Source of the DNA: Bacteroidota bacterium
Lineage (GTDB): Bacteria; Bacteroidota; Bacteroidia; Chitinophagales; JADIYW01
DNA length: 60,472 nucleotides
Direction: 5' to 3'
Assembly: GCA_039797705.1 (NCBI GenBank)
Contig: JBDKHK010000023.1
Coordinates: 1-60,472, forward strand
In this document: in pieces, positions 12,931 to 47,088 of the stretch
Position numbering within the stretch: the stretch's first letter is position 1
Layout of the letters: every line of letters begins with the position of its first letter
Position numbers and translations under genes: made by a program
Notes under the pieces: model-generated
Told to the model about the DNA's origin: nothing
Seen by the model: only the letters and a program-made list of their open reading frames with translations
Database searches by the model: none

Positions 12931-14262
12931 ATGAAGCAATTTTTTGAAACATTAAAGAACATCTTTAGTATAGAAGACCTAAGAAAAAGAATACTCTTGA
13001 CTTTAGGGCTTCTTTTTATTTACAGACTTGGATGTTTTGTAGTATTACCAGGAGTAGATCCAACAAAAATAGCAACTGGTTCCGCATCAGGAATCCTGCA
13101 ATTATTTGATTTATTTGCAGGAGGCGCATTCTCTAAAGCATCCGTTTTCGCTTTAGGAATTATGCCATATATCTCCATGTCTATCGTGATGCAATTGGTA
13201 ACACTTGCTGTACCATACTTCCAAAAAATGCAAAAAGAAGGAGAAAGTGGTAGAAAGAAAATCAATCAATATACAAGATACGGAACAGTATTAGTAACAG
13301 CATTTCAAGGATTTGCCTATGTGAAATTCTTATACGCACAAAATATTGTTTCATCAGATATTCCAATCGCATTGTTTTCCTTTTCAACTATGATAATATT
13401 AGTAGCAGGAACCGTATTTGTAATGTGGTTAGGCGAACAAATTCAAGAAAGAGGATTAGGAAATGGAACATCTTTAATTATTATGGCAAATATTATTGCT
13501 CGACTACCGGCATCCTTTGTAGCAGAGGTAAAATCAAGAGCAATCACTGGAAGCGGAATTTTAATGTTAGTGATAGAATTAGCAATCTTAATGTTTGTAA
13601 TTGTATCTACAATCATGTTGATTCAAGCTACTCGTAAAGTACCATTGAGCTACGCAAAACAAATGTCAGGAGGAAACAATGCATATACACAACGCAGAGG
13701 ATTTTTACCTTTGAAAGTGAATATAGCAGGAGTAATGCCTATCATTTTTGCACAAGCATTTTTATTTATACCAGGAACAATTGCACAACTATTCCCAGAT
13801 ACAGCAGCAGCGAGAGTATTACATCAAATGAATGATTTCACCTCTGTTCCTTATAATGTAGTAATGTTTTTAATGGTCGTATTATTTACATACTTCTATA
13901 CTGCCTTAATTATGAACCCAGTTCAAATGGCAGACGATTTAAAAAGAAATAACGGATTTATACCAGGTGTAAAACCAGGATCCAATACAGCAGAATATAT
14001 AGACACTATTTTATCTAGAATTACTTTGCCTGGTTCTTTGTTCTTAGGATTTATTGCTATAATGCCATCCTTTGCAAAGATAATCGGAGTAAATACACAA
14101 TTTGCCTACTTCTTCGGTGGAACTTCTTTGTTGATTATGGTAGCAGTAGTACTGGATACAATGCAACAAATCAACTCACATTTATTAAGTCGTCACTATG
14201 ATGGACTAACTAAATCAGGAGCAAAAATTAGAGGAAGAAATGCAGTTTCTTCAGATTATTAA
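12931..14262 (+). CDS. secY: Preprotein translocase subunit SecY
   Basis: FALGIMPYI, GLGNGTSLII, AGVMPIIFA, FIPGVKPG, GGTSLLI. Confidence 0.99.
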   Translation: MKQFFETLKNIFSIEDLRKRILLTLGLLFIYRLGCFVVLPGVDPTKIATGSASGILQLFDLFAGGAFSKASVFALGIMPYISMSIVMQLVTLAVPYFQKMQKEGESGRKKINQYTRYGTVLVTAFQGFAYVKFLYAQNIVSSDIPIALFSFSTMIILVAGTVFVMWLGEQIQERGLGNGTSLIIMANIIARLPASFVAEVKSRAITGSGILMLVIELAILMFVIVSTIMLIQATRKVPLSYAKQMSGGNNAYTQRRGFLPLKVNIAGVMPIIFAQAFLFIPGTIAQLFPDTAAARVLHQMNDFTSVPYNVVMFLMVVLFTYFYTALIMNPVQMADDLKRNNGFIPGVKPGSNTAEYIDTILSRITLPGSLFLGFIAIMPSFAKIIGVNTQFAYFFGGTSLLIMVAVVLDTMQQINSHLLSRHYDGLTKSGAKIRGRNAVSSDY

Positions 14263-14278
14263 TTTTTTTTAGGAGGAA

Positions 14279-15079
14279 ATGATACATTTAAAATCTCCCG
14301 AACAAATTGAATATATAAGAAAGAGTTCTTTGTTAGTAAGCCAGACACATGCAATGCTGGTAGAATATATAAAGCCTGGTGTAAAAACAGCTCGCTTGGA
14401 TGAACTCGCAGAGCAATTTATACGCGACAACGGAGCAAAACCATCCTTTAAAGGATATGGCGGATTTCCAGCTACCTTGTGCATATCAATGAATGAACAA
14501 GTAGTACACGGCTTCCCTTCAGATAGAGAAATTAAAGAAGGAGATATTCTATCAGTGGACTGCGGCGTATATAAAAATGGTTATCACGGCGATTCAGCAT
14601 TCACTTTTCCAATAGGAGAAATATCAACAGAATCTAAAAAATTGCTACAAGTCACTTTCAATTCTTTGTTTTTAGGAATAGAACAAGCAGTAGCAGGAAA
14701 TAGAGTGGGGGATATTGGTCATGCCATCCAGTCTTATTGCGAGTTTACTCATAAATATGGAGTAGTACGAGATTTGGTAGGACATGGTGTAGGAAAAGAA
14801 TTGCACGAAGACCCACAAATACCTAATTACGGTAAACGCGGAAAAGGTCCAATGTTGCAAGAAGGAATGGTCATTGCTATTGAACCAATGATTAACATGG
14901 GAACTTATCAGGTAAGAACTTTACCCGATAAGTGGACTATTATTACCAAAGATGGCAAGCCGTCTGCTCATTTTGAGCACACCCTAGCCATCAAAAAAGG
15001 TAAGTCTGACATACTTAGTGACCATAATTTAATATTCGAAGCGATAAAAAAGTCAGAATATATTAAGGATTTCAGATAA
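14279..15079 (+). CDS. map: Methionine aminopeptidase type I
   Basis: VVHGFP, D-x10-D, GHGVG..LHEDP, AIEPM, HFEHT. Confidence 0.98.
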
Positions 15080-15119
15080 AAATTACGATATTTGCAACCC
15101 GAAAATAGAGGTTGACGAT

Positions 15120-15338
15120 ATGGGTAAAACAGATTTAATAAAATTAGATGGTACGATCACGGAAGCTCTTTCAAACGCAATGTTCCGCGTTAAGTTAGAA
15201 AACGGCCATGAAATTTTAGCTACAATATCCGGAAAAATGCGTATGCACTACATACGAATACTACCGGGCGACAAAGTCGCAGTTGAAATTTCTCCGTATG
15301 ATCTTTCCAGAGGAAGAATAACTTTCAGATATAAATAA
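15120..15338 (+). CDS. infA: Translation initiation factor IF-1
   Basis: [28 protein letters not shown]. Confidence 0.99.
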
Positions 15339-15357
15339 ATTAAAACGATTAACTACC

Positions 15358-15474
15358 ATGAAGGTAAAAGCATCAGTAAAAAAACGAAGCGAAGACTGCA
15401 TCATCGTGCGCAGAAAAGGCAGAGTGTATGTGATAAACAAAAAAAATCCAAAATTTAAACAAAGACAAGGATAA
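15358..15474 (+). CDS. rpmJ: 50S ribosomal protein L36 (zinc-independent type); not in ORF track
   Basis: Manual translation [38 protein letters not shown] (38 aa) between infA and rpsM. Confidence 0.97.
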
Positions 15475-15476
15475 TT

Positions 15477-15854
15477 ATGGCAAGAGTATCAGGTATTGAC
15501 CTTCCAAAAAATAAAAGAGGCTTTGTTGCTCTTACTTATATATATGGAATCGGCAGATCAGCAGCAAGTGCAATTTTAGAAGAAGCAGGCGTAGATCCAC
15601 AAAAAAAAGTACACGAGTGGAACGATGACGAAACAACTGCAATTCGTAATGTAATCAATGCAGCGCATAAAGTAGAAGGACAATTACGTTCCGAAACCCA
15701 ATTAAACATTAAACGTTTAATGGATATTGGATCTTATAGAGGTATCCGTCATCGTAAAGGATTACCCGTTCGTGGACAAAGCACTAAACGTAATGCTCGT
15801 ACACGTAAAGGTAAACGTAAAACTGTAGCAGGTAAAAAGAAAGTAACTAAATAA
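15477..15854 (+). CDS. rpsM: 30S ribosomal protein S13
   Basis: [23 protein letters not shown]. Confidence 0.99.
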
Positions 15855-33591: not shown

Positions 33592-36024
33592 TTATTCAAA
33601 TTTTATGGCATCTTTTATTTTTTTCTTTTCTAAAGCAATTTCTAGCATTTCTTCCATTTCCTCTACATAATGAAATTTCAATCCTTTGATAAATTCAGCA
33701 GGTACTTCGTCCACGTCTTTTTCATTTTCCTTGCACAGGATAATTTCTTTAATTCCGGCACGTTTGGCGGCTAATATTTTTTCTTTAATTCCTCCTACCG
33801 GCAGCACTTTTCCTCTCAAAGTAATTTCACCTGTTAAGGCGGTAAACGGTTTTATTTTTCTTTGAGTAAATAAAGATGTTAATGCTGAAAGTATAGCAAT
33901 GCCGGCACTTGGGCCATCTTTTGGGATTGCACCTTCTGGAACGTGAATATGCAAATTCCAATCTGTAAAAGCTTGTTTGGGTATTTGCAATATTTCTGCT
34001 TTAGATTGTAAATAACTTAGTGCTGTATTAAAAGATTCTTTCATTACATTTCCTAAATTACCAGTAATGGATACTTGCCCTTTACCTCTGCTGGCAGAAG
34101 ATTCTATAAATAAAATATCGCCCCCCATAGGAGTCCAAGCTAAGCCGATAGCCACTCCACAAGGATTATTTTCAGAATATTTATCGTGGTTGTATTTTGG
34201 TTTTCCTAAGATGCGTGTGATATCATCGGTAGAAATCGTTGGATTATATTCTTCCTCAGTTGCTACGCTCTTGGCAACATTGCGCATGATGGATGCAATT
34301 ACTCTGTCCAATTCGCGCACGCCACTTTCATACGTGTAATTATGAATAAGATATTGAATTGTTTTATCATTTAATTTTACTTGGCTTGCCTTCAATCCAT
34401 GTGCTTCTCGTTGCTTAGCAACTAAATGTTTTTTGGCTATTTCAGTTTTTTCTTCTAATGAATAGCCGCTTAGTTGAATGATTTCCATTCTATCGCGCAA
34501 TGCAGGTTGTATTTCTCCCATGCTGTTGGCAGTAGCGATGAATAATACTTTAGATAAATCGTATTCTAATTCTAAATAATTATCATAAAATGTAGTGTTT
34601 TGTTCAGGGTCTAATACTTCTAATAAAGCAGAAGAAGGGTCGCCACGATGGTCTTTTCCTACTTTATCAATTTCATCTAAAATAAAAACAGGATTAGAAG
34701 ATTGTACTTTTTTTAATGATTGAATAATTCTGCCAGGCATGGCACCAATATATGTTTTGCGGTGTCCACGTATTTCACTCTCATCATGCAAGCCACCTAA
34801 TGACATGCGCACATATTTTCTGTCTAATGCCCGCGCGATGCTTCTGCCTAAAGATGTTTTTCCTACTCCCGGAGGGCCGATAAAACAAAGTATTGGCGAC
34901 TTCATATCACCTTTTAATTTCAATACGGCAAGGTATTCTAAAATTCTATCTTTTATTTTATCTAATCCAAAATGATCCTCATCTAATATTTTTTTACCAC
35001 GTTTTAAATCGAAATTATCTTGAGTGGTTTCATTCCATGGCAATTCAACCATGGTGTCTAAATAATTTAAGATGACAGAATATTCTGCAGCAGCCGGGTT
35101 TATGCGTTGTAATTTTCCTATTTCTTTGTCAAATGCTTTTGCAACCGTTTCACTCCATTTCTTTTCGGTCGCTTTTTCTTTCAATCTGTTGACTTCTTCT
35201 TGGTACATATCTCCACCCAATTCTTCTTGAATAGCGCGTAGTTGCTGGTTCAAGAAATAATCGCGTTGCTGTTTGTCTATATCCGTTTTTGTTTTGTTGT
35301 GAATGTTTGCTTTTAGTTCTTGTAATTGCAATTCCTGATGCAAGTATTTTAAAACCAATTGTATTCTTTCTGTTGCATCATTTATTTCCAATATTTGTTG
35401 CTTCTGTGTCGATTCAATATTCAAATTGGAAGTAATAAAATTGGCTAAAAATTTTACACTATTTATATTGGTCAATACAATTTTTGCTTCATTTGGAATA
35501 TTTGGAGAAAGGTCAATAATTTTGGAAGCCATATCTTTTAAATTTCCCATCATAGCTTTTTCTTGCTGGGGATCTAAAAGGGTAATATCATTTATATATT
35601 CAACTTCGGACTCTATAAAAGGTTCTGCGGAAACAGTTTGTTTTACAATAAAACGCCTTACGCCTTGCAGAATGATAGTACTGCCACCATCGGGCATGTT
35701 GAGTAGTTTTAAAATTCTCGCAGTAGTTCCCATTGCATATAAATCCGTAGATTCTGGGTCTTCTACTTTGGTGTCACGTTGTGCAATTACGCCTATAAAT
35801 TTGTCTGCTTTATATGCTTTTTTTATAGCTTTTATAGATTTTTCTCTACCAACAGAAATCGGTATAATAACTCCTGGAAAAAGAACATTATTCCTAAGAG
35901 GTAATATTGGAATTACTTTTGGCAGTTGTTCATTGTTTGTATTGTCATCTTCTTCGATAGATAACAAGGGTATCATTTCGACATCGTCGTCTTCAATATT
36001 GGATAATTCTATTTTTTGAAACAT
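33592..36024 (-). CDS. lon: ATP-dependent protease La
   Basis: [33 protein letters not shown]. Confidence 0.98.
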
Positions 36025-36296
36025 AAGTAAATTTAATTCAATTTAGACAATATGGCACTTTCCTTAGGCAAAGTAAGGACTTTTACTAAAAGCAAGATAT
36101 GTGCCGAACTGTTTTAAATATAAATAATGGAAGTTTTGACAGTTTTGTATCAAACTTAATAAAAATCTTTACATTACTAAATATTCTTTTGAGAAACACT
36201 ATCTAATTGTTAAAAAAAAATCAATTTATAGTGAGATAACATATTTTAATAAAAGCATTAAAGAAAGCTAACATAGCCTACTGTATTTTTGACACA

Positions 36297-36674
36297 ATGA
36301 AAATAAGGCTTGCAATCATATTTCTCTTTCTTTCTTCTTTGCTGCTGCATTCCTCCAATGGTTTTGCCATTCAAAAAATAACGAATACGGTAGAAACAAA
36401 TTTTGCCAGTAGCTTATTCACTTCAATCTCTACAATCAATTCCACACCAAAACTATTTACTGCCAAAAAAGTATGGAATGAAATTGCAACCAATTTTAAT
36501 CAGTTGTATGATGAAGATGAATTGCCGGATTCGATTGTTTCTTATCTATTAACACCCTTACTTCCATTTTGGAAAAATTTCATATTTGAAGGGTATGCCT
36601 GCAATCCACTTGCAAGGGTGACAAAATTCTTTCCTTCTAAAAAATACAAGCTATTTAACGTTTTCAGGATTTAA
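36297..36674 (+). CDS. Hypothetical signal-peptide-bearing leader protein of the RND operon
   Basis: N-terminal basic plus hydrophobic segment, acidic patch, C-terminus KKYKLFNVFRI; TATTTTTG element 5 nt before the ATG. Confidence 0.7.
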   Translation: MKIRLAIIFLFLSSLLLHSSNGFAIQKITNTVETNFASSLFTSISTINSTPKLFTAKKVWNEIATNFNQLYDEDELPDSIVSYLLTPLLPFWKNFIFEGYACNPLARVTKFFPSKKYKLFNVFRI

Positions 36675-36786
36675 ATCTATTCCTGTACATTTTTATCTTA
36701 TTGAAACCGATATTCATCGAGTTGAATAATAGTAGCTATTGTATTTAATCTAATTGATTCCTTTTTATTCCTTAATATATTTATCC

Positions 36787-37866
36787 ATGAAAAAATTATT
36801 GCCCATTGGTTTATTAGTAATTCCATTCTTTTTTGTAAGCTGTTCGTCCAATCAAGAAAAAGAGGATGAGAATATAAAGTATGAAGTAACCGTGCCACTG
36901 CAAACAGATACCTCTTTTACAAAAAAGTATTCTGCACAAATTCGATCTATAAAAAACATTGAAATAAGAACACAAGAGAGAGGTTTTCTTCAAAATATAT
37001 ATGTGGATGAAGGACAATATGTAAAAGAAGGTCAATTGATGTTTCGTATTATGCCAAAAATTTATGAAGCAGAATTAGCAAAAGAAGAAGCAGAAGTAAA
37101 AATGGCAGAAATAGAAGTACAAAATGCTAAAACATTAGTAGATAAAAACGTCATTTCAAAAAATGAATTATTAATGGCACAAGCTAAATTAGAACAGGCA
37201 AAAGCAGGAGCCTCCTTAGCAAGAACACATCTTTCATTTACAGAAATTAAAGCACCTTTTTCAGGGATTATTGATAGATTACCCAAAAGATTAGGAAGTT
37301 TATTAGACGAAGGAGAATTGCTGACCAGTCTTTCTGATAACAGCTCTATGTATGTTTATTTTAATGTTTCGGAGCCAGAATATTTAGATTATAAACAACA
37401 AGCAGAAAATAAAAATGTACAAGTAGGTTTGCTGTTAGCAAATAATACCATACTTCCATCAAAAGGCACTATTGAAACAATAGAAGGAGAGTTTGATAAT
37501 GAAACGGGAAATATTGCCTTTAGAGCAAAATTTCCAAATGGAAATGGATGGCTGAAACATGGAGAAACTGGGGATATTTTAATGACCATTCCATTCAAAA
37601 ATACAATTGTTATTCCTCAAAAAGCAACGTATGAAGTACAAGACAGAAAATATGTTTTTATAGTAGATAAAAATAATGTACTACACTCCAAGCAAATTAA
37701 AATAAGTGCTGAAATACCCGATTTGTATATTGTTACAGATGGCATAACTGTAAATGATAAAATATTATTAGAAGGACTACAAAGAGTGAAAAATGGTGAG
37801 AAAATTGAATACGATTTCAAAAAACCAGAAGAGGTAATTGCTAATTTGAGATTGAAAGCAGAATAA
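36787..37866 (+). CDS. RND efflux periplasmic adaptor (MFP) lipoprotein
   Basis: Lipobox FVSC, VDEGQYVKEGQ, IKAPFSG, IPQKA; ATG at 36787. Confidence 0.95.
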   Translation: MKKLLPIGLLVIPFFFVSCSSNQEKEDENIKYEVTVPLQTDTSFTKKYSAQIRSIKNIEIRTQERGFLQNIYVDEGQYVKEGQLMFRIMPKIYEAELAKEEAEVKMAEIEVQNAKTLVDKNVISKNELLMAQAKLEQAKAGASLARTHLSFTEIKAPFSGIIDRLPKRLGSLLDEGELLTSLSDNSSMYVYFNVSEPEYLDYKQQAENKNVQVGLLLANNTILPSKGTIETIEGEFDNETGNIAFRAKFPNGNGWLKHGETGDILMTIPFKNTIVIPQKATYEVQDRKYVFIVDKNNVLHSKQIKISAEIPDLYIVTDGITVNDKILLEGLQRVKNGEKIEYDFKKPEEVIANLRLKAE

Positions 37867-37887
37867 TCCAAAAACAAATTTAATAAT

Positions 37888-40800
37888 ATGTTTAGTAAAA
37901 TTATACAAAGACCAGTATTGGCAATTGTCATATCGTTGATAATCGTATTTTTGGGCGTGCTGGCAATTACCCAATTACCTGTCACCCAATTTCCGTCCAT
38001 TTCTCCACCCATGGTAAATGTAACAGCAGATTATCCTGGCGCAAACGGAGAACTAATGATTAAAGCAGTCGTAATTCCATTAGAGCAAGCATTAAATGGT
38101 GTTCAAGGAATGAAATACATTACTTCCGATGCAGGTAATGACGGAGAAGCCAGCATTCAAATCGTATTTAATTTAGGAACAGACCCCAATGTGGCAGCAT
38201 TGAATGTGCAAAATAGGGTTGCATCTGTTTTAAACAAACTGCCACCATTGGTAGTTCGCGAAGGGGTGAAGATTTCACAAGAACAACCTAACATGTTGAT
38301 GTATGTGAATCTTTATAGTAAAGACCCAAAAACAGACCAAAAATTCTTGTTTAACTATTCTGATATCAATCTTTTGCCAGAGTTGAAACGTATCAAAGGT
38401 GTAGGTTTCGCAGATATTTTAGGAAATAGAGAATACGCCATGCGTATCTGGTTGAAACCAGACAGAATGTTGGCCTATAAAATATCCGCAGACGAAGTCA
38501 TGGAGGCTCTGTCTAGTCAAAGCTTAGAAGCCTCGCCCGGAAAAACAGGCGAAAGCTCTGGAAAACGTTCTCAAACATTTGAATATGTTTTAAAATATTC
38601 AGGACGATATACCAACGAAGACCAATACAGAAATATAGTTGTTCGGGCAAATTCAGATGGCGAATTATTAAGACTTAAAGACATTGCAGAAGTAGAGTTT
38701 GGTAGTTCTATGTATGATATTTATTCCAGTATCGACGGAAAACCATCTGCAGCCATTGTCTTGAAGCAGTCGTACGGCAGTAATGCAACTCAAGTAATTA
38801 AAGACATCAAATCAAAATTAAATGAAATAAAGAAAAATTTTCCAGATGGAATGGATTATGAAATTAGTTATGATGTTTCTAATTTCTTAGATGCCTCCAT
38901 AGAAAAAGTTGTACATACTTTAATAGAGGCTTTTTTATTGGTAGGCTTAGTAGTGTTCTTGTTTTTGGGCGATTGGCGCTCTACGTTGATTCCAGCATTA
39001 GCCGTTCCGGTATCATTGGTAGGTACTTTTGCATTTATGAGTTTCTTCGGTATTTCCTTAAATTTAATTACCTTATTTGCATTAGTGTTAGCCATAGGTG
39101 TGGTAGTGGATGATGCAATTGTAGTGATTGAAGCCGTGCACGCAAAAATGGAAACCGAACATTTGTCACCGAGGCGAGCAACGATAGTTGCTATAAATGA
39201 AATTGCAGGAGCCATTATTGCCATTACATTACTCATGGCAGCTATTTTCATTCCTGTAACTTTTATGTCAGGGCCAGTAGGGATGTTCTATCGCCAATTT
39301 TCCATTACAATGGCAACAGCTATCGTATTATCTGGTATCGTTGCATTAACCTTAACGCCTGCATTATGTGCCATTATTTTAAAAAATAATCATGGTAAAG
39401 AAAGAAAAAAAGGCATCTTAACAAGGTTAATAGAAGGATTCAATAAAAGATTTGATAAATCAGCAGAAGGCTATGTGAAAATTTTAGAAAAAATAGTAAA
39501 CAGACGAAGCCTCACCTTTATTTTGTTGCTTTTATTTTGTGGTGGAATTTTCTTTATAAGCAGAACCGTGCCTTCTGGATTTATTCCCGGAGAAGATCAG
39601 GCAATGATTTATGCAATTATACAAACACCTCCTGGATCGTCCTTGGAAAGAACGTATGATGTGTCAGAAAGATTACAAAAAATTGCTGAAGGGATAGATG
39701 GTATCCAATCTGTTTCTGCATTAGCTGGATATGAAATTCTAACAGAAGGAACCAGCTCTAATACAGGTACCTGTTTAATAAATTTGAAAGAATGGAGTAA
39801 ACGGAAATTAAATGCACAACAAATTATTGAAGAATTAGAAAAAAAATCTAAAGATATTTCAGGCGCAAATATCGAATTCTTTCAACCGCCAGCAGTTCCC
39901 GGATATGGTGCCGCAGGTGGTTTTGAATTGCGCTTGTTAGACAAAGCAGGAACCGGGAATTATAAAAAATTAGAACAAGTAAATAAAGATTTTGTAAATG
40001 AATTGAAAAAAAGGAAAGAACTTACTTCTGTATTTAGTTTCTATAGTGCCAGTTTTCCTCAATACCTTCTTGAAGTGGATAATGATATAGCCCAGCAAAA
40101 AGGAGTAACTATTGAAAATGCAATGAATACCCTTTCTACATTGGTTGGAAGTAACTACGAAATAAGTTTTATAAAATTTGGAAAGATGTATAAAGTTATC
40201 GTCGAGGCAGCACCGGAATATCGTGCGTTGCCAGAAGATATTTTAAAATTATATGTCAAAAATAACCGAGACCAAATGGTACCATTTTCCGATTTTATTA
40301 AGATGAAAAAAGTATATGGTTTGTCGGAAATTACTCGACATAATTTGTATAATTCAACAGAGATTAGCGGATCGGCAGCACCGGGCTATAGCAGTGGTGA
40401 AGCCATAAAAATAGTTCAAGAAGTGGCAGAAAAAACACTTCCACATGGTTATGGAATTGACTGGGCGGGTATTTCTGCCGATGAAGTGGCACAGGGAAAT
40501 CAAGCAATCATTGTTTTTTTAATCAGTTTAATATTTGTTTATATGGTACTTGCTGGGCAGTATGAAAGTTTTATTTTACCACTTTCTGTCATCCTTTGCT
40601 TGCCTGCAGGTATTTTTGGGACCTTCTTATTTCTTAAATTATTTGGACTAGAAAATAATATTTATGCCCAAATTGCCATGGTGATGTTGATTGGGTTATT
40701 GGGGAAAAATGCTGTTTTGATTGTAGAATACGCTGCTTTGCGCCATAGTCAAGGACTGACTATTTTTCAGGCCACTTTGGAAGGAGCAAAAGTTCGTTTC

Positions 40801-41052
40801 CGTCCTATTTTAATGACTTCCTTTGCATTTATTGCGGGGTTGCTTCCATTGATGTTTGCAACTGGCCCTGGAAGAATAGGGAATAGAACAATAGGTACCG
40901 CAGCAGCGGGAGGGATGCTCTTCGGAACCGTATTCGGTGTGTTTATTATTCCCGGATTATATTTCGTTTTCGGTACCATCGCAGAAAAATATAGTTTTAT
41001 AAAAAATGAAAAAGATAATCCATTAACAGAAGAATTACAGAATCATGAATAA
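37888..41052 (+). CDS. RND efflux permease (HAE1/AcrB family)
   Basis: LPVTQFP, AMRIWL, VDDAIVVIE, KNAVLIVE, RFRPILMTS. Confidence 0.97.
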   Translation: MFSKIIQRPVLAIVISLIIVFLGVLAITQLPVTQFPSISPPMVNVTADYPGANGELMIKAVVIPLEQALNGVQGMKYITSDAGNDGEASIQIVFNLGTDPNVAALNVQNRVASVLNKLPPLVVREGVKISQEQPNMLMYVNLYSKDPKTDQKFLFNYSDINLLPELKRIKGVGFADILGNREYAMRIWLKPDRMLAYKISADEVMEALSSQSLEASPGKTGESSGKRSQTFEYVLKYSGRYTNEDQYRNIVVRANSDGELLRLKDIAEVEFGSSMYDIYSSIDGKPSAAIVLKQSYGSNATQVIKDIKSKLNEIKKNFPDGMDYEISYDVSNFLDASIEKVVHTLIEAFLLVGLVVFLFLGDWRSTLIPALAVPVSLVGTFAFMSFFGISLNLITLFALVLAIGVVVDDAIVVIEAVHAKMETEHLSPRRATIVAINEIAGAIIAITLLMAAIFIPVTFMSGPVGMFYRQFSITMATAIVLSGIVALTLTPALCAIILKNNHGKERKKGILTRLIEGFNKRFDKSAEGYVKILEKIVNRRSLTFILLLLFCGGIFFISRTVPSGFIPGEDQAMIYAIIQTPPGSSLERTYDVSERLQKIAEGIDGIQSVSALAGYEILTEGTSSNTGTCLINLKEWSKRKLNAQQIIEELEKKSKDISGANIEFFQPPAVPGYGAAGGFELRLLDKAGTGNYKKLEQVNKDFVNELKKRKELTSVFSFYSASFPQYLLEVDNDIAQQKGVTIENAMNTLSTLVGSNYEISFIKFGKMYKVIVEAAPEYRALPEDILKLYVKNNRDQMVPFSDFIKMKKVYGLSEITRHNLYNSTEISGSAAPGYSSGEAIKIVQEVAEKTLPHGYGIDWAGISADEVAQGNQAIIVFLISLIFVYMVLAGQYESFILPLSVILCLPAGIFGTFLFLKLFGLENNIYAQIAMVMLIGLLGKNAVLIVEYAALRHSQGLTIFQATLEGAKVRFRPILMTSFAFIAGLLPLMFATGPGRIGNRTIGTAAAGGMLFGTVFGVFIIPGLYFVFGTIAEKYSFIKNEKDNPLTEELQNHE

Positions 41053-42487
41053 GTATATCATAACAAGAATTAGCATATTATTCGCCGTTGTCATCCTTTT
41101 TAATGGATGTTCCATTCCTAAAGTAACGCAGCGTACAGAAAATAAAAATACGCCAAACACTTATGGAAACAACTCCAAGCCAACAGATACACTTAATAGT
41201 GCAAAAATAAGTTGGCGTACCTTTTTTACCGATTCCAATTTGGTACATTTAATAGACACAGCATTGGTGCATAATCAGGAGTTGATGATTACACTACAAG
41301 AAATTGAAATTGCCAAAAATGATATTCGAGTAAAAAAAGGAGAATTGCTACCCACTGTAAATTATGGATTGGAAGTAGGCGCCGATAAAGTGGGTAGGTA
41401 CACCAGCCAAGGAGCAGGGGATGAGGCCACCGAAATTAAACCAGGAAAAAAAGTACCACAAATATTAGGTGATTTCAAATTTGGAGTAGATATGGAATGG
41501 GAAATTGATATTTGGAAAAAATTGCGCAATGCCAAAAAAGCCGCTATCAAACGATATTTGGCCACCATTGAAGGTAAAAATTTTGTACTCACTAATCTTA
41601 TTGCAGAAGTAGCAAAATCCTATTATGAATTGGTTGCATTGGACAATCAATTAAATGTTGTTCGCCAAAATATTATTACCCAAAAGAACGCATTGGAGAT
41701 TGTGAAAATTCAAAAGGAAGCCAGTCGAGCAACGGAATTAGCCGTAAAAAAGTTTGAAGCAGAAGTACTGGGCACACAAAGCAAAGAATTTGAAATTTTG
41801 CAACAAATAAAAGAAACAGAAAACAAAATAAACTTCCTTTTAGGTCGCTTTCCACAAGAGATACCAAGAAACAGAGATAATTTTGAGCAAATGATACCAC
41901 CAATTGTATATGCTGGAATCCCAGCGCAATTGTTGCAAAACAGACCAGATATCAAACAGGCGGAATTTCAATTAGATGCTTCTAAGTTAGATGTAAAAGT
42001 GGCGAAAGCAGAATTTTATCCTTCTTTAAAAATATCTGCAAGCATAGGTTTGGATGCATTTAATCCTGCTTTTTGGATAAAAATTCCAGAATCTATTTTT
42101 AGTTCCTTAGCGGCAGGTTTATTAGGGCCACTAATAAATAAAAATGCTATCAAAGCTGAATATTTAAGCGCGAATGCCCGTCAAAAACAAGCGGTTTATA
42201 CATTTGAAAAAAATATCTTAAATGGATATTATGAAGTATATACACAGCTTTCTAAAGTAGATAATTTAGAAAGAAGTTATGATTTAAAATCCAAACAAAT
42301 GGATGCATTATACATGTCTGTTCAGGTGGCAAATGATTTATTTACATCTGCCAGAGCAGATTATTTTGAAGTGCTAATGACACAACGTGATGCATTAGAT
42401 TCAAAATTGGAATTGATTGATACTAAAAAAGATCAATTAAATGCAGTTGTTGATGTTTACAGAAGTTTAGGTGGAGGCTGGCAATAG
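41045..42487 (+). CDS. TolC/OprM family outer-membrane efflux lipoprotein
   Basis: Lipobox FNGC, WEIDIW, NRPDI, YRSLGGGW. Confidence 0.96.
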   Translation: MNKYIITRISILFAVVILFNGCSIPKVTQRTENKNTPNTYGNNSKPTDTLNSAKISWRTFFTDSNLVHLIDTALVHNQELMITLQEIEIAKNDIRVKKGELLPTVNYGLEVGADKVGRYTSQGAGDEATEIKPGKKVPQILGDFKFGVDMEWEIDIWKKLRNAKKAAIKRYLATIEGKNFVLTNLIAEVAKSYYELVALDNQLNVVRQNIITQKNALEIVKIQKEASRATELAVKKFEAEVLGTQSKEFEILQQIKETENKINFLLGRFPQEIPRNRDNFEQMIPPIVYAGIPAQLLQNRPDIKQAEFQLDASKLDVKVAKAEFYPSLKISASIGLDAFNPAFWIKIPESIFSSLAAGLLGPLINKNAIKAEYLSANARQKQAVYTFEKNILNGYYEVYTQLSKVDNLERSYDLKSKQMDALYMSVQVANDLFTSARADYFEVLMTQRDALDSKLELIDTKKDQLNAVVDVYRSLGGGWQ

Positions 42488-42502
42488 AAAATTGTAAAAT
42501 TG

Positions 42503-42546
42503 AAAAAGAGGAGGCTGTATCGAAAGATGCAGCCTCTCTTTTTTTT
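42503..42546. terminator. Bidirectional terminator (RND operon and original tRNA-Ser terminator)
   Basis: GAGGCTGTATC-GAAA-GATGCAGCCTC flanked by A and T runs; abuts the displaced tRNA 3' copy. Confidence 0.88.
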
Positions 42547-42547
42547 A

Positions 42548-42576
42548 TTACAACGTTTTTGCGGAGACGATGAGAT
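42548..42576 (-). repeat. att site: displaced copy of the tRNA-Ser 3' end plus trailer
   Basis: TTACAACGTTTTTGCGGAGACGATGAGAT vs TTATAACGTTTTTGCGGAGACGGTGAGAT at 44351-44379 (27/29 identical). Confidence 0.9.
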
Positions 42577-42577
42577 A

Positions 42578-42790
42578 AGTGTTTTTTCTAACGACAAATT
42601 AAAACAGACCTATAAAATACCTTATCAAACTATCTCTAAAACAACCGTTGAGGCAAACGATTATAGAGTAGAAGTAATAACCGCCGGACGGTTAATTATT
42701 TTCCGTGTTTTAGATGACAGAAACACAGAAATAGCCGTGCGCCCGGTATCATTAGACACTCCAACACCTTTTGTAATTTATTCAGAATAA
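42578..42790 (+). pseudogene. 5'-truncated gene fragment at the island left end
   Basis: Open frame ending ...RPVSLDTPTPFVIYSE with no in-frame ATG after the att site; the track start at 42500 runs through a terminator and att. Confidence 0.5.
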
Positions 42791-42800
42791 AAAATAAAAC

Positions 42801-43063
42801 ATGGCAACAACAACAAAAAAAACAGCACCCAAAAAACGCGCTACTACAGCTAAAAAAAAGCACCTAAAAAACGCAAGGTGAGTATAAAGAAAATAGCCAA
42901 CAGAGGTTTATTAAGAGCGAAAATAACCAAACAAGAAAAAGCTATAAAAGCCTTAAAAAAAGAAGTTTCAAAGATAGAGCGCAAGGATAAAGTATTAAAA
43001 CGCAAACTGTCTAAAGTGCGGCGCACGGCAAAAGTTACTCGCAAGCGTGTAGCAAAAAAGTAA
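42801..43063 (+). CDS. Highly basic H1-like/coiled-coil protein split by a -1 frameshift in an A8 tract
   Basis: MATTTKKTAPKKRATTAKKK in frame 0 joins APKKRKVSIKK...RKRVAKK in the -1 frame at 42852-42860; joined product 87 aa, 38 K+R. Confidence 0.7.
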
Positions 43064-43094
43064 AATTGACTATGATGAAAACATAATAGAAAAA

Positions 43095-43220
43095 ATGCAA
43101 AAAAAAGAAAAAGAAGCATTTTTAAAAAAGTTTGAATCAGAAATGAGAAAATTATTATCTACTGCATCGGGACGGCAACGCCTTAAAAAATCAGGTTTTA
43201 ACGTTCCTAAATTATCTTAG
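43095..43220 (+). CDS. Small hypothetical protein (41 aa)
   Basis: MQKKEKEAFLKKFESEMRKLLSTASGRQRLKKSGFNVPKLS*; A-rich initiation context, followed by a terminator. Confidence 0.45.
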   Translation: MQKKEKEAFLKKFESEMRKLLSTASGRQRLKKSGFNVPKLS

Positions 43221-43258
43221 ATATTTGTATGTTTTGGTAGAAATACAAATTATGAGGC

Positions 43259-43286
43259 AAAAAACACGTTTAAAAGCGTGTTTTTT
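43259..43286. terminator. Intrinsic terminator (bidirectional)
   Basis: AAAAAACACGTT...AGCGTGTTTTTT. Confidence 0.65.
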
Positions 43287-43355
43287 GGTTTAAATAAAAA
43301 ATAAATTCGTTCCAGTCGAATTGAAAAAAATCGAGTGGTTTCGGTTTCATAAATG

Positions 43356-43384
43356 AACGCACTTCTTAGGAGGTGCGTTTTTTA
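43356..43384 (+). terminator. Intrinsic terminator insulating the TA operon
   Basis: AACGCACTTC-TTAG-GAGGTGCGTT followed by a T run. Confidence 0.75.
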
Positions 43385-43424
43385 TGCCGGTTGCATTTTA
43401 CAACAATAAGTATTACATTTGAGT

Positions 43425-43655
43425 ATGTTTTTTCAATCACCAATAGTAAGTAAAATTACAGATTACATAGAGCAAATGCCTGAAACCAAGCAAAAGGCAC
43501 TGTTAAAAGTATTGGAAAAAGAAGCCATTATACAAAAAGCCCGAAAATTAGATAGTGGCGTTAAAAAAAATAATATTACAATGAATGAAATTGTAGCCAT
43601 TGTCAGAGATGTTCGAAAAAAACGATACAATGCAGGCAAACAAATACGTTCTTGA
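43425..43655 (+). CDS. Putative antitoxin
   Basis: Small ORF overlapping the downstream PIN gene; C-terminal ITMNEIVAIVRDVR helix; TACATTTG element just upstream. Confidence 0.7.
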   Translation: MFFQSPIVSKITDYIEQMPETKQKALLKVLEKEAIIQKARKLDSGVKKNNITMNEIVAIVRDVRKKRYNAGKQIRS

Positions 43656-44028
43656 TTGTAATGTATATATCAGCTATATTATTAATGGGAAATTAGCAGA
43701 TTTAACAGAATACATAGTTCTCAATGATATTGAAATAATCTTCTGCAGAGAACTGGAAGCCGAAATAATAGATGTATTACAAAGAAACCATATTAAAAAA
43801 TATCTGAAATACACCAGTAATGATTATTTAGAAGCAATTCACCTGTTTACCAAAAATGTAAAAAAAACACGACAATACAAAGGGAGCCCAGATATAAAAG
43901 ACGATTATCTATTTTCATTATGCCTTAGTACAAAATCTACCTTGGTAACAGGCGATAAAAAACTGTTGAATTTTAAAGAAACACCAATTCCGGTTATTTC
44001 TACTACGGCATTCAAAAAACTATTCTAA
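43630..44028 (+). CDS. PIN-domain toxin (VapC-like)
   Basis: VLDCNVYIS, E, D.KDD, LVTGDKKLL acidic PIN motifs; ATG at 43630. Confidence 0.88.
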   Translation: MQANKYVLDCNVYISYIINGKLADLTEYIVLNDIEIIFCRELEAEIIDVLQRNHIKKYLKYTSNDYLEAIHLFTKNVKKTRQYKGSPDIKDDYLFSLCLSTKSTLVTGDKKLLNFKETPIPVISTTAFKKLF

Positions 44029-44113
44029 TAATTTTTTTCTAAAAAAAAAATTGCACTTTGGTATTTCTTTTGCCGTATTTGAAGTGCGAAACAACATTAT
44101 GAAAATCAAATCA

Positions 44114-44210
44114 AAATTTATTAACAATAAGCCAGGCGAGCGTTTCAGAAACTTATCTCTACCTTATGGTACTGTGTTCGTAGCGCCTGGCGGTTTTTTG
44201 TTAAAAATTT
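44114..44210 (+). ncRNA. Candidate structured antisense RNA (c4/CI-like architecture)
   Basis: Stem GCCAGGCG (44131-44138) / CGCCTGGC (44184-44191) with AT-rich extension and internal hairpins; internal TACTGTGTTC is complementary to downstream GAACACAGTA. Confidence 0.5.
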
Positions 44211-44364
44211 ATGTGAACACAGTAAAAACCGGCAAAGAACGCGCCAAGCACAAATAATGCCACAGCAACCACCAGCAAAATCAGATTTAAGTTTATTGTA
44301 AGCGCAGAAATTGCGACACCAAATGCTACAGCTAATTGTAAATCAACAAGTTATAACGTTTTTG

Positions 44365-44451
44365 CGGAGACGGTGAGATTCGAACTCACGATACAGTTTC
44401 CCATATACACACTTTCCAGGCGTGCTCCTTCAACCACTCGGACACGTCTCC
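44365..44451 (-). tRNA. tRNA-Ser (anticodon GGA), CCA not encoded
   Basis: Acceptor GGAGACG/CGTCTCC, anticodon arm CACGC-CTGGAAA-GTGTG, long variable arm, GTTCGAATC T-loop, discriminator G. Confidence 0.97.
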
Positions 44452-44458
44452 TTTTTAG

Positions 44459-44525
44459 AAGTAAGTAGTGAGTATCAAGTACTAATCCTTTTATTCTTAC
44501 TACTTGCTACTTTTATCCTACTACT
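44459..44525. repeat. Two-armed heptamer tract (AGTAAGT AGTGAGT ATCAAGT / TTCTTAC TACTTGC TACT...)
   Basis: Complementary 7-periodic arms between the acyl-CoA dehydrogenase stop and the tRNA 5' end. Confidence 0.55.
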
Positions 44526-44528
44526 TTT

Positions 44529-45677
44529 TTATATTTTTCCTGTAAGAACTCCTCTCGAAATAACAATCCGTTGCACTTCGGATGTTCCTTCATAAATTTG
44601 AGTAATTTTTGCATCACGCATTAATCGCTCTACATGATACTCTTTTACATATCCATAGCCACCGTGCACTTGAACCGCTTCTGTTGTTACATGCATTGCC
44701 ACTTCTGATGCAAATAATTTTGCAGTAGCAGAAGCAATCGCATAATCCTGATGTTGGTCTTTCAACCAAGCTGCTTTATATACCAATAAACGTGCTGCTT
44801 CAATTTGTGTTGCCATGTCTGCCAACTTAAATTGAATAATCTGATGGTTTGCAATTTCAGTTCCAAATGCTTTGCGCACTTTTGCATATTCCACTGCTAA
44901 CTCATACGCACCGGCTGCGATGCCTAATGCTTGTGCTGCAATACCAATTCTCCCGCCTTCCAGTGTTTTCATTGCAAATTTGAATCCAAATCCATCTTCA
45001 CCAATTCTATTTTCTTTTGGCACTTTCACATCTGTAAATAATAAAGAATGTGTATCAGAAGCACGAATACCTAATTTGTCTTCTTTTGCACCAATTTCAA
45101 AACCCGGCATTCCCTTTTCTACTATCAATACATTAATTCCTCGATGTCCTTTTTCAGGATGTGTTTGAGCAATTACTAAATAGGTGTCGGCTTTCCCACC
45201 GTTAGTAATCCAGTTTTTTGTACCGTTTAATAAATAATAATCTCCTTTGTCTTCGGCAGTTGTTTTTTGAGAAGTGGCATCACTTCCGGCTTCCGGTTCG
45301 CTTAATGCAAACGCACCTAATTTTTTACCAGATGCTAAAGGAACTAAATATTTTTGTTTTTGCTCTTCCGTTCCATAAGCTTCTAATCCCCAACAAACCA
45401 ACGAATTATTTACCGACATGGCCACTGAACAAGAAGCATCTAATTTGGAAATTTCTTCCATAGCAATGCAGTACGAAACAGCATCCATGCCACCGCCACC
45501 GTATTTGGTGTCCACCATCATGCCCATAAAACCAAGCTCACCCATTTGTTTTAAAAATTCTGTTGGATGAATCATGTCTCTATCACGGTCAATAACGCCC
45601 GGTTTCAATACATTTTGCGTGAAATTGCGTGCCATTTCACGTATTTGCTGATGCTCTTCGGTAAGTTGAAAATTCAT
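44529..45677 (-). CDS. Acyl-CoA dehydrogenase (short-chain/butyryl-CoA type)
   Basis: FALSEPEAGSD, NGTKNWITNG, QVHGGYGY, QIYEGTSEVQ. Confidence 0.96.
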   Translation of the reverse strand: MNFQLTEEHQQIREMARNFTQNVLKPGVIDRDRDMIHPTEFLKQMGELGFMGMMVDTKYGGGGMDAVSYCIAMEEISKLDASCSVAMSVNNSLVCWGLEAYGTEEQKQKYLVPLASGKKLGAFALSEPEAGSDATSQKTTAEDKGDYYLLNGTKNWITNGGKADTYLVIAQTHPEKGHRGINVLIVEKGMPGFEIGAKEDKLGIRASDTHSLLFTDVKVPKENRIGEDGFGFKFAMKTLEGGRIGIAAQALGIAAGAYELAVEYAKVRKAFGTEIANHQIIQFKLADMATQIEAARLLVYKAAWLKDQHQDYAIASATAKLFASEVAMHVTTEAVQVHGGYGYVKEYHVERLMRDAKITQIYEGTSEVQRIVISRGVLTGKI

Positions 45678-45833: not shown

Positions 45834-45898
45834 TGCACAACAGAATAATCATTTATCTATTATTTTGTTGATTTTGTTGTGCAATTTACGTAAGTTTG
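45834..45898 (+). promoter_or_regulatory. Promoter (-7 TAAGTTTG at 45891-45898) with upstream inverted-repeat operator candidate
   Basis: TGCACAACAGAAT (45834-45846) vs ATTTTGTTGTGCA (45871-45883), 12/13 inverted match. Confidence 0.55.
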
Positions 45899-45918
45899 TA
45901 GATGCTAAATTAAGAATT

Positions 45919-47088
45919 ATGCAAAAGCTTTATCAAAAATATGAAACATTATTACAGCATACAACAATGGATTTTAAGCGATATTTGTATGGTAAAGTTG
46001 TTTGGAATAGTCGAATGACAGGAGTTATCGGTAGTCGTGGCGTCGGAAAAACAACTATGATTTTGCAATATATCAAAGAAAATTTAGATACTAAGAAGGC
46101 TTTGTATGTATCGGCAGATGATATGTATTTTGGAGAAAATAGATTAATTGATTTAGCCGATAATTTTTATAAGTCAGCCGGCGAATATTTATTTATAGAC
46201 GAAATTCATAAATATGCTGACTGGTCTCAGGAATTAAAAAATATTTATGACTCATTTCCTGGATTAAGAATAATTTTTACAGGTTCTTCGGTTTTAGATA
46301 TTCTCAAAGGTTCCGCAGATTTGAGTCGCCGTGCAATTATATACCATCTGCAAGGGCTTTCGTTTAGAGAATATCTGAAATTATTTCATAATTATGATGT
46401 TGATATTTACCCATTAGAGCAAATTATTAAAAATGAGGTAAAACTTTCTGAAATTAAACATCCCTTACCTTTTTTTAAAGACTATCTGAAACGTGGTTAT
46501 TATCCATTTGGGCTGGAGGAAGCATTTGATTTACGTCTTGGACAAATTATTGTTCAAACTTTAGAAACAGATATTCCTCAATATGCCAACTTAAATATAG
46601 GGACCGGCAGAAAATTAAAACGTTTACTGTCTATTATTGCGGAAAGTGTACCATTTAAACCAAATTTTTCTAAAATTTCAGAGCTGATTGGTGTGAGCAG
46701 AAATTCATTAGACGATTATTTTCAATATATGGAGAAGGCAGGTCTTATTGGGCAACTCCGGGATGAAACAAGTGGTTTACGTGGATTAGGCAAGGTTGAT
46801 AAAGTGTATTTAGATAATACCAATCTGATTTACAATTTAGTTGGAGAGCAGTCTAATATTGGGAATATTAGAGAAACCGTTTTTTTTAATCAAATGAGCA
46901 ATCAGCATAATATTATTGCTTCCCAAAATGCTGATTTTATTATTGGCGATTACACATTTGAAATTGGCGGTAAAAACAAACAACAAAGACAAATTAAGCA
47001 AGATAATAAATCATTTATTGTAAAAGATGATATAGAATATGGCTATCAGAATGTGATACCTTTGTGGGCATTTGGATTAAACTACTAA
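45919..47088 (+). CDS. AAA_14 / DUF4143-type ATPase with a C-terminal restriction-endonuclease-like domain
   Basis: GSRGVGKTT, FIDEIH, FTGSS, LSFREY, GYYP, KVYLDN, ADF...FEIGGK; ATG at 45919. Confidence 0.85.
   Translation: MQKLYQKYETLLQHTTMDFKRYLYGKVVWNSRMTGVIGSRGVGKTTMILQYIKENLDTKKALYVSADDMYFGENRLIDLADNFYKSAGEYLFIDEIHKYADWSQELKNIYDSFPGLRIIFTGSSVLDILKGSADLSRRAIIYHLQGLSFREYLKLFHNYDVDIYPLEQIIKNEVKLSEIKHPLPFFKDYLKRGYYPFGLEEAFDLRLGQIIVQTLETDIPQYANLNIGTGRKLKRLLSIIAESVPFKPNFSKISELIGVSRNSLDDYFQYMEKAGLIGQLRDETSGLRGLGKVDKVYLDNTNLIYNLVGEQSNIGNIRETVFFNQMSNQHNIIASQNADFIIGDYTFEIGGKNKQQRQIKQDNKSFIVKDDIEYGYQNVIPLWAFGLNY

Follow-up and report, generated by a model that had tools for sequence, protein, structure and literature searches.

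The 60,472-nt stretch of DNA analysed here, hereafter the window (contig JBDKHK010000023.1 of the Bacteroidota bacterium assembly GCA_039797705.1), carries a tRNA-Ser(GGA) gene. Behind this gene lies a 1.8-kb island that is bounded by a direct repeat of the tRNA 3' end and holds a predicted toxin-antitoxin (TA) pair. An earlier reading of the sequence, the original prediction, described this island as an integrase-less remnant of a phage or satellite, possibly mobilised in trans, or else as a minimal immunity or defence cassette. The window is contig C23 of a 2.77-Mb assembly of 206 contigs with a completeness of 93.6%. This assembly is labelled G000, other G numbers denote relatives, L numbers denote loci and X numbers denote sequencing runs. 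The features of the island are listed in Table 1 and agree with the cargo first proposed: a truncated open reading frame (ORF), a basic ORF, a 41-aa ORF, two terminators, an antitoxin-PIN pair and a structured region at 44084-44204.

Table 1 Features of the island and its borders, with positions in the window.
Feature	Position	Strand	Basis or description
Bidirectional terminator hairpin with T/A runs	42505-42547		Folding energy; similar hairpin in relatives
Displaced (attR-type) repeat copy	42548-42576		13 nt of former downstream flank plus 16 nt tRNA-like, with GATGAG variant
ORF1, truncated	42577-42790	+	Final 71 codons; family is membrane-anchored, ~116 aa
Basic protein gene, frameshifted	42801-43063	+	26-codon piece plus 61-codon piece (42878-43063)
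41-aa ORF	43095-43220	+	No match in Pfam, PHROGs, NCBIfam or PADLOC
Two terminator-type hairpins closing the left module	43258-43288 and 43355-43382		-14.6 kcal/mol (z -4.75) and -16.1 kcal/mol (z -4.44)
Antitoxin, 76 aa, VapB15-like	43425-43655	+	E 1.2e-7, 31.8 bits, under the cut-off of 80
PIN-domain toxin, 132 aa	43630-44028	+	TIGR00305 and PF13470; overlaps the antitoxin gene by 26 nt
RNA element	44056-44204	+	TTTG...TAtTTG promoter-like boxes (by eye), then ~121 nt (44084-44204)
Spacer	44205-44350		Small ORFs and integrase here in related prophages; first ~95 nt still align with G007
tRNA-proximal (attL-type) repeat copy	44351-44379		Repeat search and genome count
tRNA-Ser(GGA), intact	44364-44451	-	T-stem fully paired, GGTGAG/CTCAC

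The tRNA-Ser(GGA) was the only tRNA reported by ARAGORN, and it scored 54.6 bits against the Rfam tRNA model. From its ARAGORN position, the right-hand copy of the repeat consists of the final 16 nt of the tRNA and the 13 nt past its end. The two copies are 29 nt long, lie 1803 nt apart and are identical at 27 of 29 positions (93%), which agrees with the two mismatches first described. Both contain an identical 18-bp stretch, made up of the last 9 nt of the tRNA and the 9 nt downstream. When the assembly was searched for the 25-nt core of the repeat, allowing up to three mismatches, exactly two sites were recovered, and a reversed control gave none. The DNA of the island is single-copy in the assembly, and its GC content of 30-33% lies below the 35-39% of the flanks.

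A terminator was proposed directly behind the displaced repeat copy on the minus strand, and a hairpin at 42510-42537 was found there, with a folding energy of -17.9 kcal/mol on the minus strand (z -5.9) and -24.0 kcal/mol on the plus strand (z -6.5). Among the tRNA-Ser(GGA) loci of relatives that were displayed, 8 of 13 carry a terminator hairpin within about 15 nt of the tRNA 3' end; in the window this layout was found at the displaced copy and not at the live tRNA. This hairpin originally flanked the tRNA on its 3' side and now also serves the tolC-like gene ending at 42487 as its terminator. The T-stem of tRNA-Ser covaries between species, in the forms GATGAG/CTCAT, GGTGAG/CTCAC and GGCGAG/CTCGC. 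The displaced copy has GATGAG, the variant found opposite CTCAT in tRNAs from other species, whereas the live tRNA of the window has GGTGAG/CTCAC. Such a variant would fit a foreign, phage-borne tRNA-like arm derived from attP.

The left module of the island appears degraded. An open frame at 42500-42790 gave no family match; it extends back over the repeat into the hairpin, and its native start is lost. ORF1 is 38% identical over 71 aa (E 2e-17) to a 117-aa protein of G007, and the match begins exactly where the repeat ends. A profile of ORF1 matched 15 proteins at E≤0.001 among 1.84 billion representatives, and a word-indexed protein search with the G007 homologue recovered only that protein itself. 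An N-terminal hydrophobic segment, absent from ORF1 in the window, was present in 11 of 13 short family members that were aligned. ORF1 is therefore a truncated gene that has lost its first ~45 codons, and the frame across the repeat is accidental. A variant of ORF1 (P0003, compared with window 42527-42790) on a single 1946-nt contig has six amino acid changes in a stretch of 17 residues that takes in the conserved ND(Y/F) motif, and may reflect dead-gene drift or a poor contig.

The basic protein gene opens at an ATG at 42801 and encodes KKxAPKKR repeats, but an A8 tract (42852-42859) interrupts this frame, and the gene continues in the next one with the 61-codon piece. The basic character of this 61-aa ORF was described correctly at first, whereas its lysine-plus-arginine content was given as 44% and measured 42.6%. 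It matched the C-terminal half of the 120-aa basic protein of G007 with 54.3 bits; composition-preserving shuffles gave 25.0 ± 2.7 bits, and none of 100 scored as high. Matches from an Atlas search with the basic protein were all below 0.9 and were not used. Three alleles of the A tract were found in metagenome contigs (n=3): the window form, also seen in X17; a form in X2 with one additional A, which restores a single 87-aa basic-protein frame; and a form in X11 with two additional bases and two substitutions, which is in the third frame. The gene is decaying or switching.

The TA pair that follows is an intact, predicted VapBC-type PIN pair. The toxin scored 46.1 bits against TIGR00305 (cut-off 29.15) and 32 bits against PF13470 (PIN_3; E 2.4e-7, cut-off 27), and a sequence search of the PDB with it returned no matches. 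In a four-row alignment with three homologues, the acidic residues D9, E45, D88/D91 and D109 are invariant; we take these to have the same catalytic role as in the PIN family. The pair resembles VapBC modules in having a PIN toxin above cut-off, a small antitoxin that is encoded upstream and overlaps the toxin gene, and these acidic residues. It differs in that the antitoxin falls under the VapB15 cut-off and the toxin has no sequence match among solved structures, and its activity is a prediction. A TAcaTTTG box, read by eye, lies just upstream of the antitoxin gene at 43408-43415. The 5' region of the antitoxin gene shares 75-79% DNA identity with chromosomal PIN pairs of congeners, and comparable antitoxin-PIN pairs occupy ordinary chromosomal positions in G009 and G011.

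Of the 32 other species in the genus, 29 lack the interior of the island, and three hold pieces of 75-207 nt elsewhere. One of these pieces led to a larger element at tRNA-Ser(TGA) in G007 (contig C3). Its order is endolysin (phrog_90, E 1.7e-48), small membrane proteins, the 117-aa protein with an N-terminal hydrophobic segment, the 120-aa basic protein, BrnT-like, Doc-like and RelE-like toxin genes, a noncoding stretch of ~120 nt, a tyrosine integrase and the tRNA. An internal stop splits the integrase gene (L030, 4735-5820) into two ORFs; over 358 residues it aligns in one frame with the intact integrase of G021, at 55% identity. As judged from gene order, the island runs collinear to the final ~4 kb of the prophage in G007, except that it has a different TA pair and that the integrase is missing. 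The intact 360-aa integrase of G021 also lies at a tRNA-Ser(TGA), with a copy of the RNA motif ~840 nt beyond its stop codon, and that element carries tail-type genes and a lysozyme-like lysis gene as well. On contig C62 of G010 the motif accompanies a primase, a tape-measure protein and a 430-aa integrase. The phage-remnant part of the original prediction is therefore borne out by the syntenic homologues of ORF1 and of the basic protein in G007, where an endolysin lies beside them, and by the RNA beside integrases at two more phage-type loci. The satellite part is not, since no packaging or hijacking genes are present. The structural genes of the related phage gave no PHROG or Pfam match, and the parent family is uncharacterised; no att duplicate of the G007 prophage was found within 40 kb.

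As first described, no integrase lies between the repeats, where a Pfam search of the island ORFs was negative. Over the whole assembly, PF00589 matched on contigs C55, C102 and C3 only and not on the window contig, and tblastn with two phage integrases found no match in the window. Of recombinases, the assembly has a 301-aa Xer-like gene (so labelled by judgement), a 131-aa remnant of an integrase and a fragment that lies at the end of a contig. A genomic integrase sharing the att core was also searched for; no phage-type integrase was found in the 93.6%-complete assembly and no recombinase lay near a copy of the att core. The loci of relatives that were fetched likewise had no integrase within 1.5 kb of tRNA-Ser(GGA). 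The 131-aa C-terminal remnant (C102, L034, 192-1370) adjoins a 248-aa Fic-domain gene beside purD and looks like a second decayed element of the same genome.

The island was also followed in natural populations. Positions 42200-44700 were present at ≥0.91 of sampled words in 18 runs from 10 studies, which covered activated sludge, wastewater, bioreactors and freshwater. Single contigs spanned the tolC-like gene, the displaced repeat copy and the island in X2 (41800-44153), X11 (41800-44050) and X17 (41800-43582), and further contigs ran from the RNA element into the tRNA, so that both junctions were bridged by contigs of three studies. The truncated ORF1 call, the toxin and the antitoxin were each recovered from dozens of contigs, in two or three sequence variants. 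In all strains of the species that were seen the island occupies the same place, and it is fixed in these populations. Contigs of four runs gave no joint that skips the island, and no empty-site or circle junction among the loose ends listed, although contigs drop rare variants and a rare excision would escape such data. In contigs of three metagenome studies no base differed over 43400-44028, whereas the left module of the same contigs had five substitution sites besides the three A-tract length alleles, and the tolC part had three sites. With numbers this small, the invariance of the TA genes against a varying left module hints at constraint and no more.

Across the genus, tRNA-Ser(GGA) is flanked by lon on one side and by an acyl-CoA dehydrogenase gene on the other. 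The distance from the tRNA 3' end to lon is 128 nt in G008, 183 nt in G014 and 8.3 kb in the window, where it is taken up by a resistance-nodulation-division (RND) efflux operon (36297-42487) followed by the island. The operon comprises a 125-aa ORF, a membrane-fusion protein, a 1054-aa pump and the tolC-like gene, and it lies between lon and tRNA-Ser in this species only. The seven relatives examined have their tolC homologue on another contig or at another place, each time with a different 3' flank. No att copy was found on the lon side of the operon, which was therefore probably in place before the phage arrived.

From this evidence the segment 42548-44363 is, with a probability of about 80%, an immobile and decayed remnant of a temperate phage. 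It formally falls under the definition of a cis-mobilizable element (CIME) and gives no sign of movement. A phage would have integrated into the 3' end of tRNA-Ser(GGA) by recombination of the tyrosine-integrase type, most likely with the crossover inside the identical 18-bp stretch. Integration would have rebuilt a working tRNA and moved the old 3' end, together with its terminator, 1.8 kb away. Later, at least two deletions, whose number and order are our reconstruction, would have removed nearly everything else: one from the distal att copy into ORF1, the other taking the integrase and the small ORFs between the RNA element and the tRNA. The survivor would be the moron region around the intact PIN pair. 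The pair may have biased which deletions survived, because its loss frees a stable RNase toxin from a labile antitoxin, and two deletions that flank an intact pair would be the pattern favoured by post-segregational killing. That the segment has been kept by TA addiction is plausible, and we only infer it. The ~120-nt element would be made as a sense-strand small RNA or leader with a hairpin terminator of its own.

Several points weigh against this history. No genome showed the exact empty site, in which the tolC terminator would directly adjoin the tRNA; the species representatives have no such junction because the operon is at the locus only in this species. Two deletions are needed, each of which must spare an att copy. 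The left deletion ends exactly at the edge of the repeat and could instead have been a site-specific event. An intact parent phage specific for tRNA-Ser(GGA) was not found among the viral or genome contigs scanned: the viral contigs gave no relatives with the ORF1 profile, the RNA-motif pattern, a right-end pattern or the PIN toxin, and the genome contigs gave none with the RNA-motif pattern or with an ORF1 profile built from a four-row alignment, the 13-row alignment having no conserved stretch. The synteny of ORF1 and the basic protein comes from one genome, G007, and the two related prophages use tRNA-Ser(TGA), so that the lost integrase is hypothetical. The TA activity, the expression of the RNA and the stabilising effect are putative.

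Decayed prophages of this general kind are familiar. Cryptic prophages at tRNA genes, of which those of E. coli K-12 are an example (PMC3105296), likewise combine insertion at a tRNA 3' end and a duplicated core with deletion of most phage genes and retention of morons, including TA pairs. The island differs from them in being far smaller (1.8 kb), in having lost its integrase too and in deriving from an uncharacterised parent family. It is an ordinary kind of genomic fossil, of low novelty apart from its RNA, and the findings leave current concepts unchanged. It nevertheless offers a clean, small example of the decay of a prophage to a TA-centred stump and agrees with the view that addiction modules influence which deletions persist. 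Through the ORF1 family, the basic protein and the integrase-adjacent RNA, it also gives a first anchor for the uncharacterised phage family of an abundant activated-sludge bacterium.

The rival account that fares best takes the island to be a CIME that is still mobile, having lost its own integrase but kept a usable attL and attR, through which it would be excised, or travel along in tandem, on entry of a related phage or element whose integrase is specific for tRNA-Ser(GGA). PMC5704250 defines the CIMEs of streptococci as elements that have lost their integration and transfer genes and retained attL and attR. The island agrees with that account in its lost integrase and in its two att copies, which match at 27 of 29 positions around an identical 18-bp core. 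The tRNA-Ser 3' end is moreover busy in the genus, with a Fic islet in G019 and extra partial tRNA copies in G013 and G023. The same source derives CIMEs from integrative and conjugative or integrative and mobilizable elements (ICEs or IMEs) and reports movement in cis with an incoming element, whereas the island derives from a phage and is unlike CIMEs in that neither a partner element nor movement was seen. Set beside a single-copy island at one constant place, the missing phage-type integrase, both in the assembly and near tRNA-Ser(GGA) in relatives, and contigs of four runs that neither skip nor circularise it, continued mobility is improbable, and the same observations lend no support to the mobilisation in trans that the original prediction had raised as possible. 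Its further suggestion of a defence cassette found no backing either: the five island proteins had no match to a defence model in PADLOC-DB 2.0.

A stepwise assembly, in which a trans-acting recombinase inserted the left module, the TA pair and the RNA element separately behind the tRNA, could explain why terminators separate the modules, why the TA type is unlike those of G007 and why small unrelated insertions occur at the same tRNA in relatives. The island has no internal att-like copies, the core occurring at two sites only; the order of modules is that of the G007 prophage, and ORF1 is a truncated gene and not a cassette with ends of its own. We consider this account decidedly improbable. 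That nothing was inserted, the repeat being due to chance or local duplication and the genes being ordinary chromosomal ones, has only the small size and AT-rich sequence in its favour and is barely credible for a 27/29 repeat that is unique in 2.77 Mb and encloses a segment of low GC that is missing from congeners and has phage homologues.

On the reading preferred here, that of a decayed prophage, the RNA element would have lain next to the lost integrase. In the window GUGCGAAA is followed by a conserved AUG and then by an AU-rich block that is invariant; next come a long hairpin, whose closing stem has 8 bp (44131-44138/44184-44191), and a U-run. Positions 44084-44204 aligned with G007 and with contig C62 of G010, and the G007 stretch is 73% identical to window 44057-44263. 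A covariance model added a copy in the congener G021 (E 1.3e-5 per genome), a refined version of it added one in G101, from another genus of the family (E 2.6e-4), and a pattern scan added one on a metagenome contig (90.9 bits). All six copies start with GUGCGAAA (or AUGCAAA), have the AUG ~20 nt on and end in a U-rich tail, and they share the AU-rich block, which is invariant in four. By copy, the closing 8-bp stem reads GCCAGGCG, GCCGTGCG, GUCGGACG, GCCACACG, GGCGCACG or GCCAGACG, with a 3' arm that matches each. In a four-row alignment this helix is 100% paired, and both sides change in three of the eight pairs. Its covariation of 0.556 compared with 0.326 ± 0.049 in shuffles (0 of 500 as high) and with at most 0.21 for slid partners, in a test on four rows whose alignment had been fitted to the model and for a motif known from six copies. 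Another candidate copy, in G250 (E 0.0086), proved to be a bare short hairpin in which 3 nt replace 45 model positions, and it was left uncounted.

Rfam 15 gave nothing over 44084-44204 at E≤1, the tRNA alone reaching its gathering score. G-U pairs fix the RNA on the plus strand, the strand of the TA genes. It had been put forward as a candidate antisense RNA; since it is a sense-strand RNA with no gene opposite, it is not one in the usual meaning. The RNA of a type I or type III TA system was considered and rejected, as the element lies downstream of the TA genes on the same strand and has no tandem repeats. A small protein was considered as well, for in every copy the AUG opens a frame of 47-63 codons that runs through the hairpin. 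This was also rejected: the invariant block would encode INNKPxERF in the window and L096, against LLTISR or YLKSSH in G007, G010 and G021. As the frames differ and stem-arm residues change while pairing is kept, conservation of a protein is not the main constraint. A translated leader is possible.

The surroundings of the RNA are of phage type for every copy, and in G101 the motif adjoins a PIN pair. We guess, with little confidence, that the element is a small RNA or leader that has a terminator of its own and would mark the boundary between late or moron genes and the integrase-proximal region. The P4 CI and P1 c4 immunity RNAs are small phage-borne regulatory RNAs with an intrinsic terminator. 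The element resembles them in being short, structured and promoter-proximal and in lying in an accessory region of a temperate phage; it differs in having no sequence or Rfam relation to them and no identified target sites. A search of the genome for targets complementary to the invariant block gave 17 reverse matches against 23 in the control, and so no signal. The motif is the sole element of the island that looks undescribed and may be mildly novel. With a covarying hairpin in six phage-linked copies and no Rfam family, it is a candidate for a new phage regulatory RNA. More speculatively, the hairpin RNA might found a new family of temperate-phage regulatory RNAs, of the immunity or attenuator type, seated between late or moron genes and the integrase; RNA and PIN pair might have been kept because together they hamper newly arriving phages related to the lost one, which would make the stump more than debris, and the tRNA-Ser 3' end might serve as a genus-wide landing pad on which minimal modules persist. 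We hold this combined proposal to be rather doubtful.

Differences between strains at 44154, 44181 and 44190 cluster in the RNA hairpin. The T>C change at 44181 turns a G-U pair into a G-C pair; at 44190, G>A disrupts the closing stem at its second pair. Contigs of run X2 fragment at the hairpin, which suggests mixed strains. Among the runs listed with the stretch none was RNA; two marked 'RNA?' are probably DNA, and one of these, X19, had no cover over 43624-44307.

Other insertions were observed at the same tRNA in relatives. In G019 (contig C13, L051, ~14072-15643) the tRNA-Ser 3' end and lon are separated by an insert of 1572 nt. It carries a Fic-type gene on the reverse strand (HPFxDGNG, by eye) and no integrase, and its borders are formed by GTCTCCGCAA, which repeats 10 nt of the tRNA end. 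Extra tRNA-Ser-like copies were seen in G023 (contig C113, L040, 312-805) and G013 (contig C23, L018, 1197-1438). In these copies the 5' acceptor strand is missing and a hairpin is inserted into the anticodon loop; G023 also has a small ORF, judged by eye to be of GIY-YIG type, that separates its extra copy from the live tRNA. The orientation of tRNA-Ser also varies: its 5' end points toward lon in eight loci (L014, L018, L012, L020, L022, L015, L039 and L038), and its 3' end does so in L050, L052, L051 and the window (33592-45677). The flip looks like an inversion of the single gene at an integration hotspot. Two genes past the tRNA, at 45865-47088, the window encodes an AAA_14/DUF4143 ATPase that matches the PADLOC candidate PDC-S01 (E 2.6e-25).

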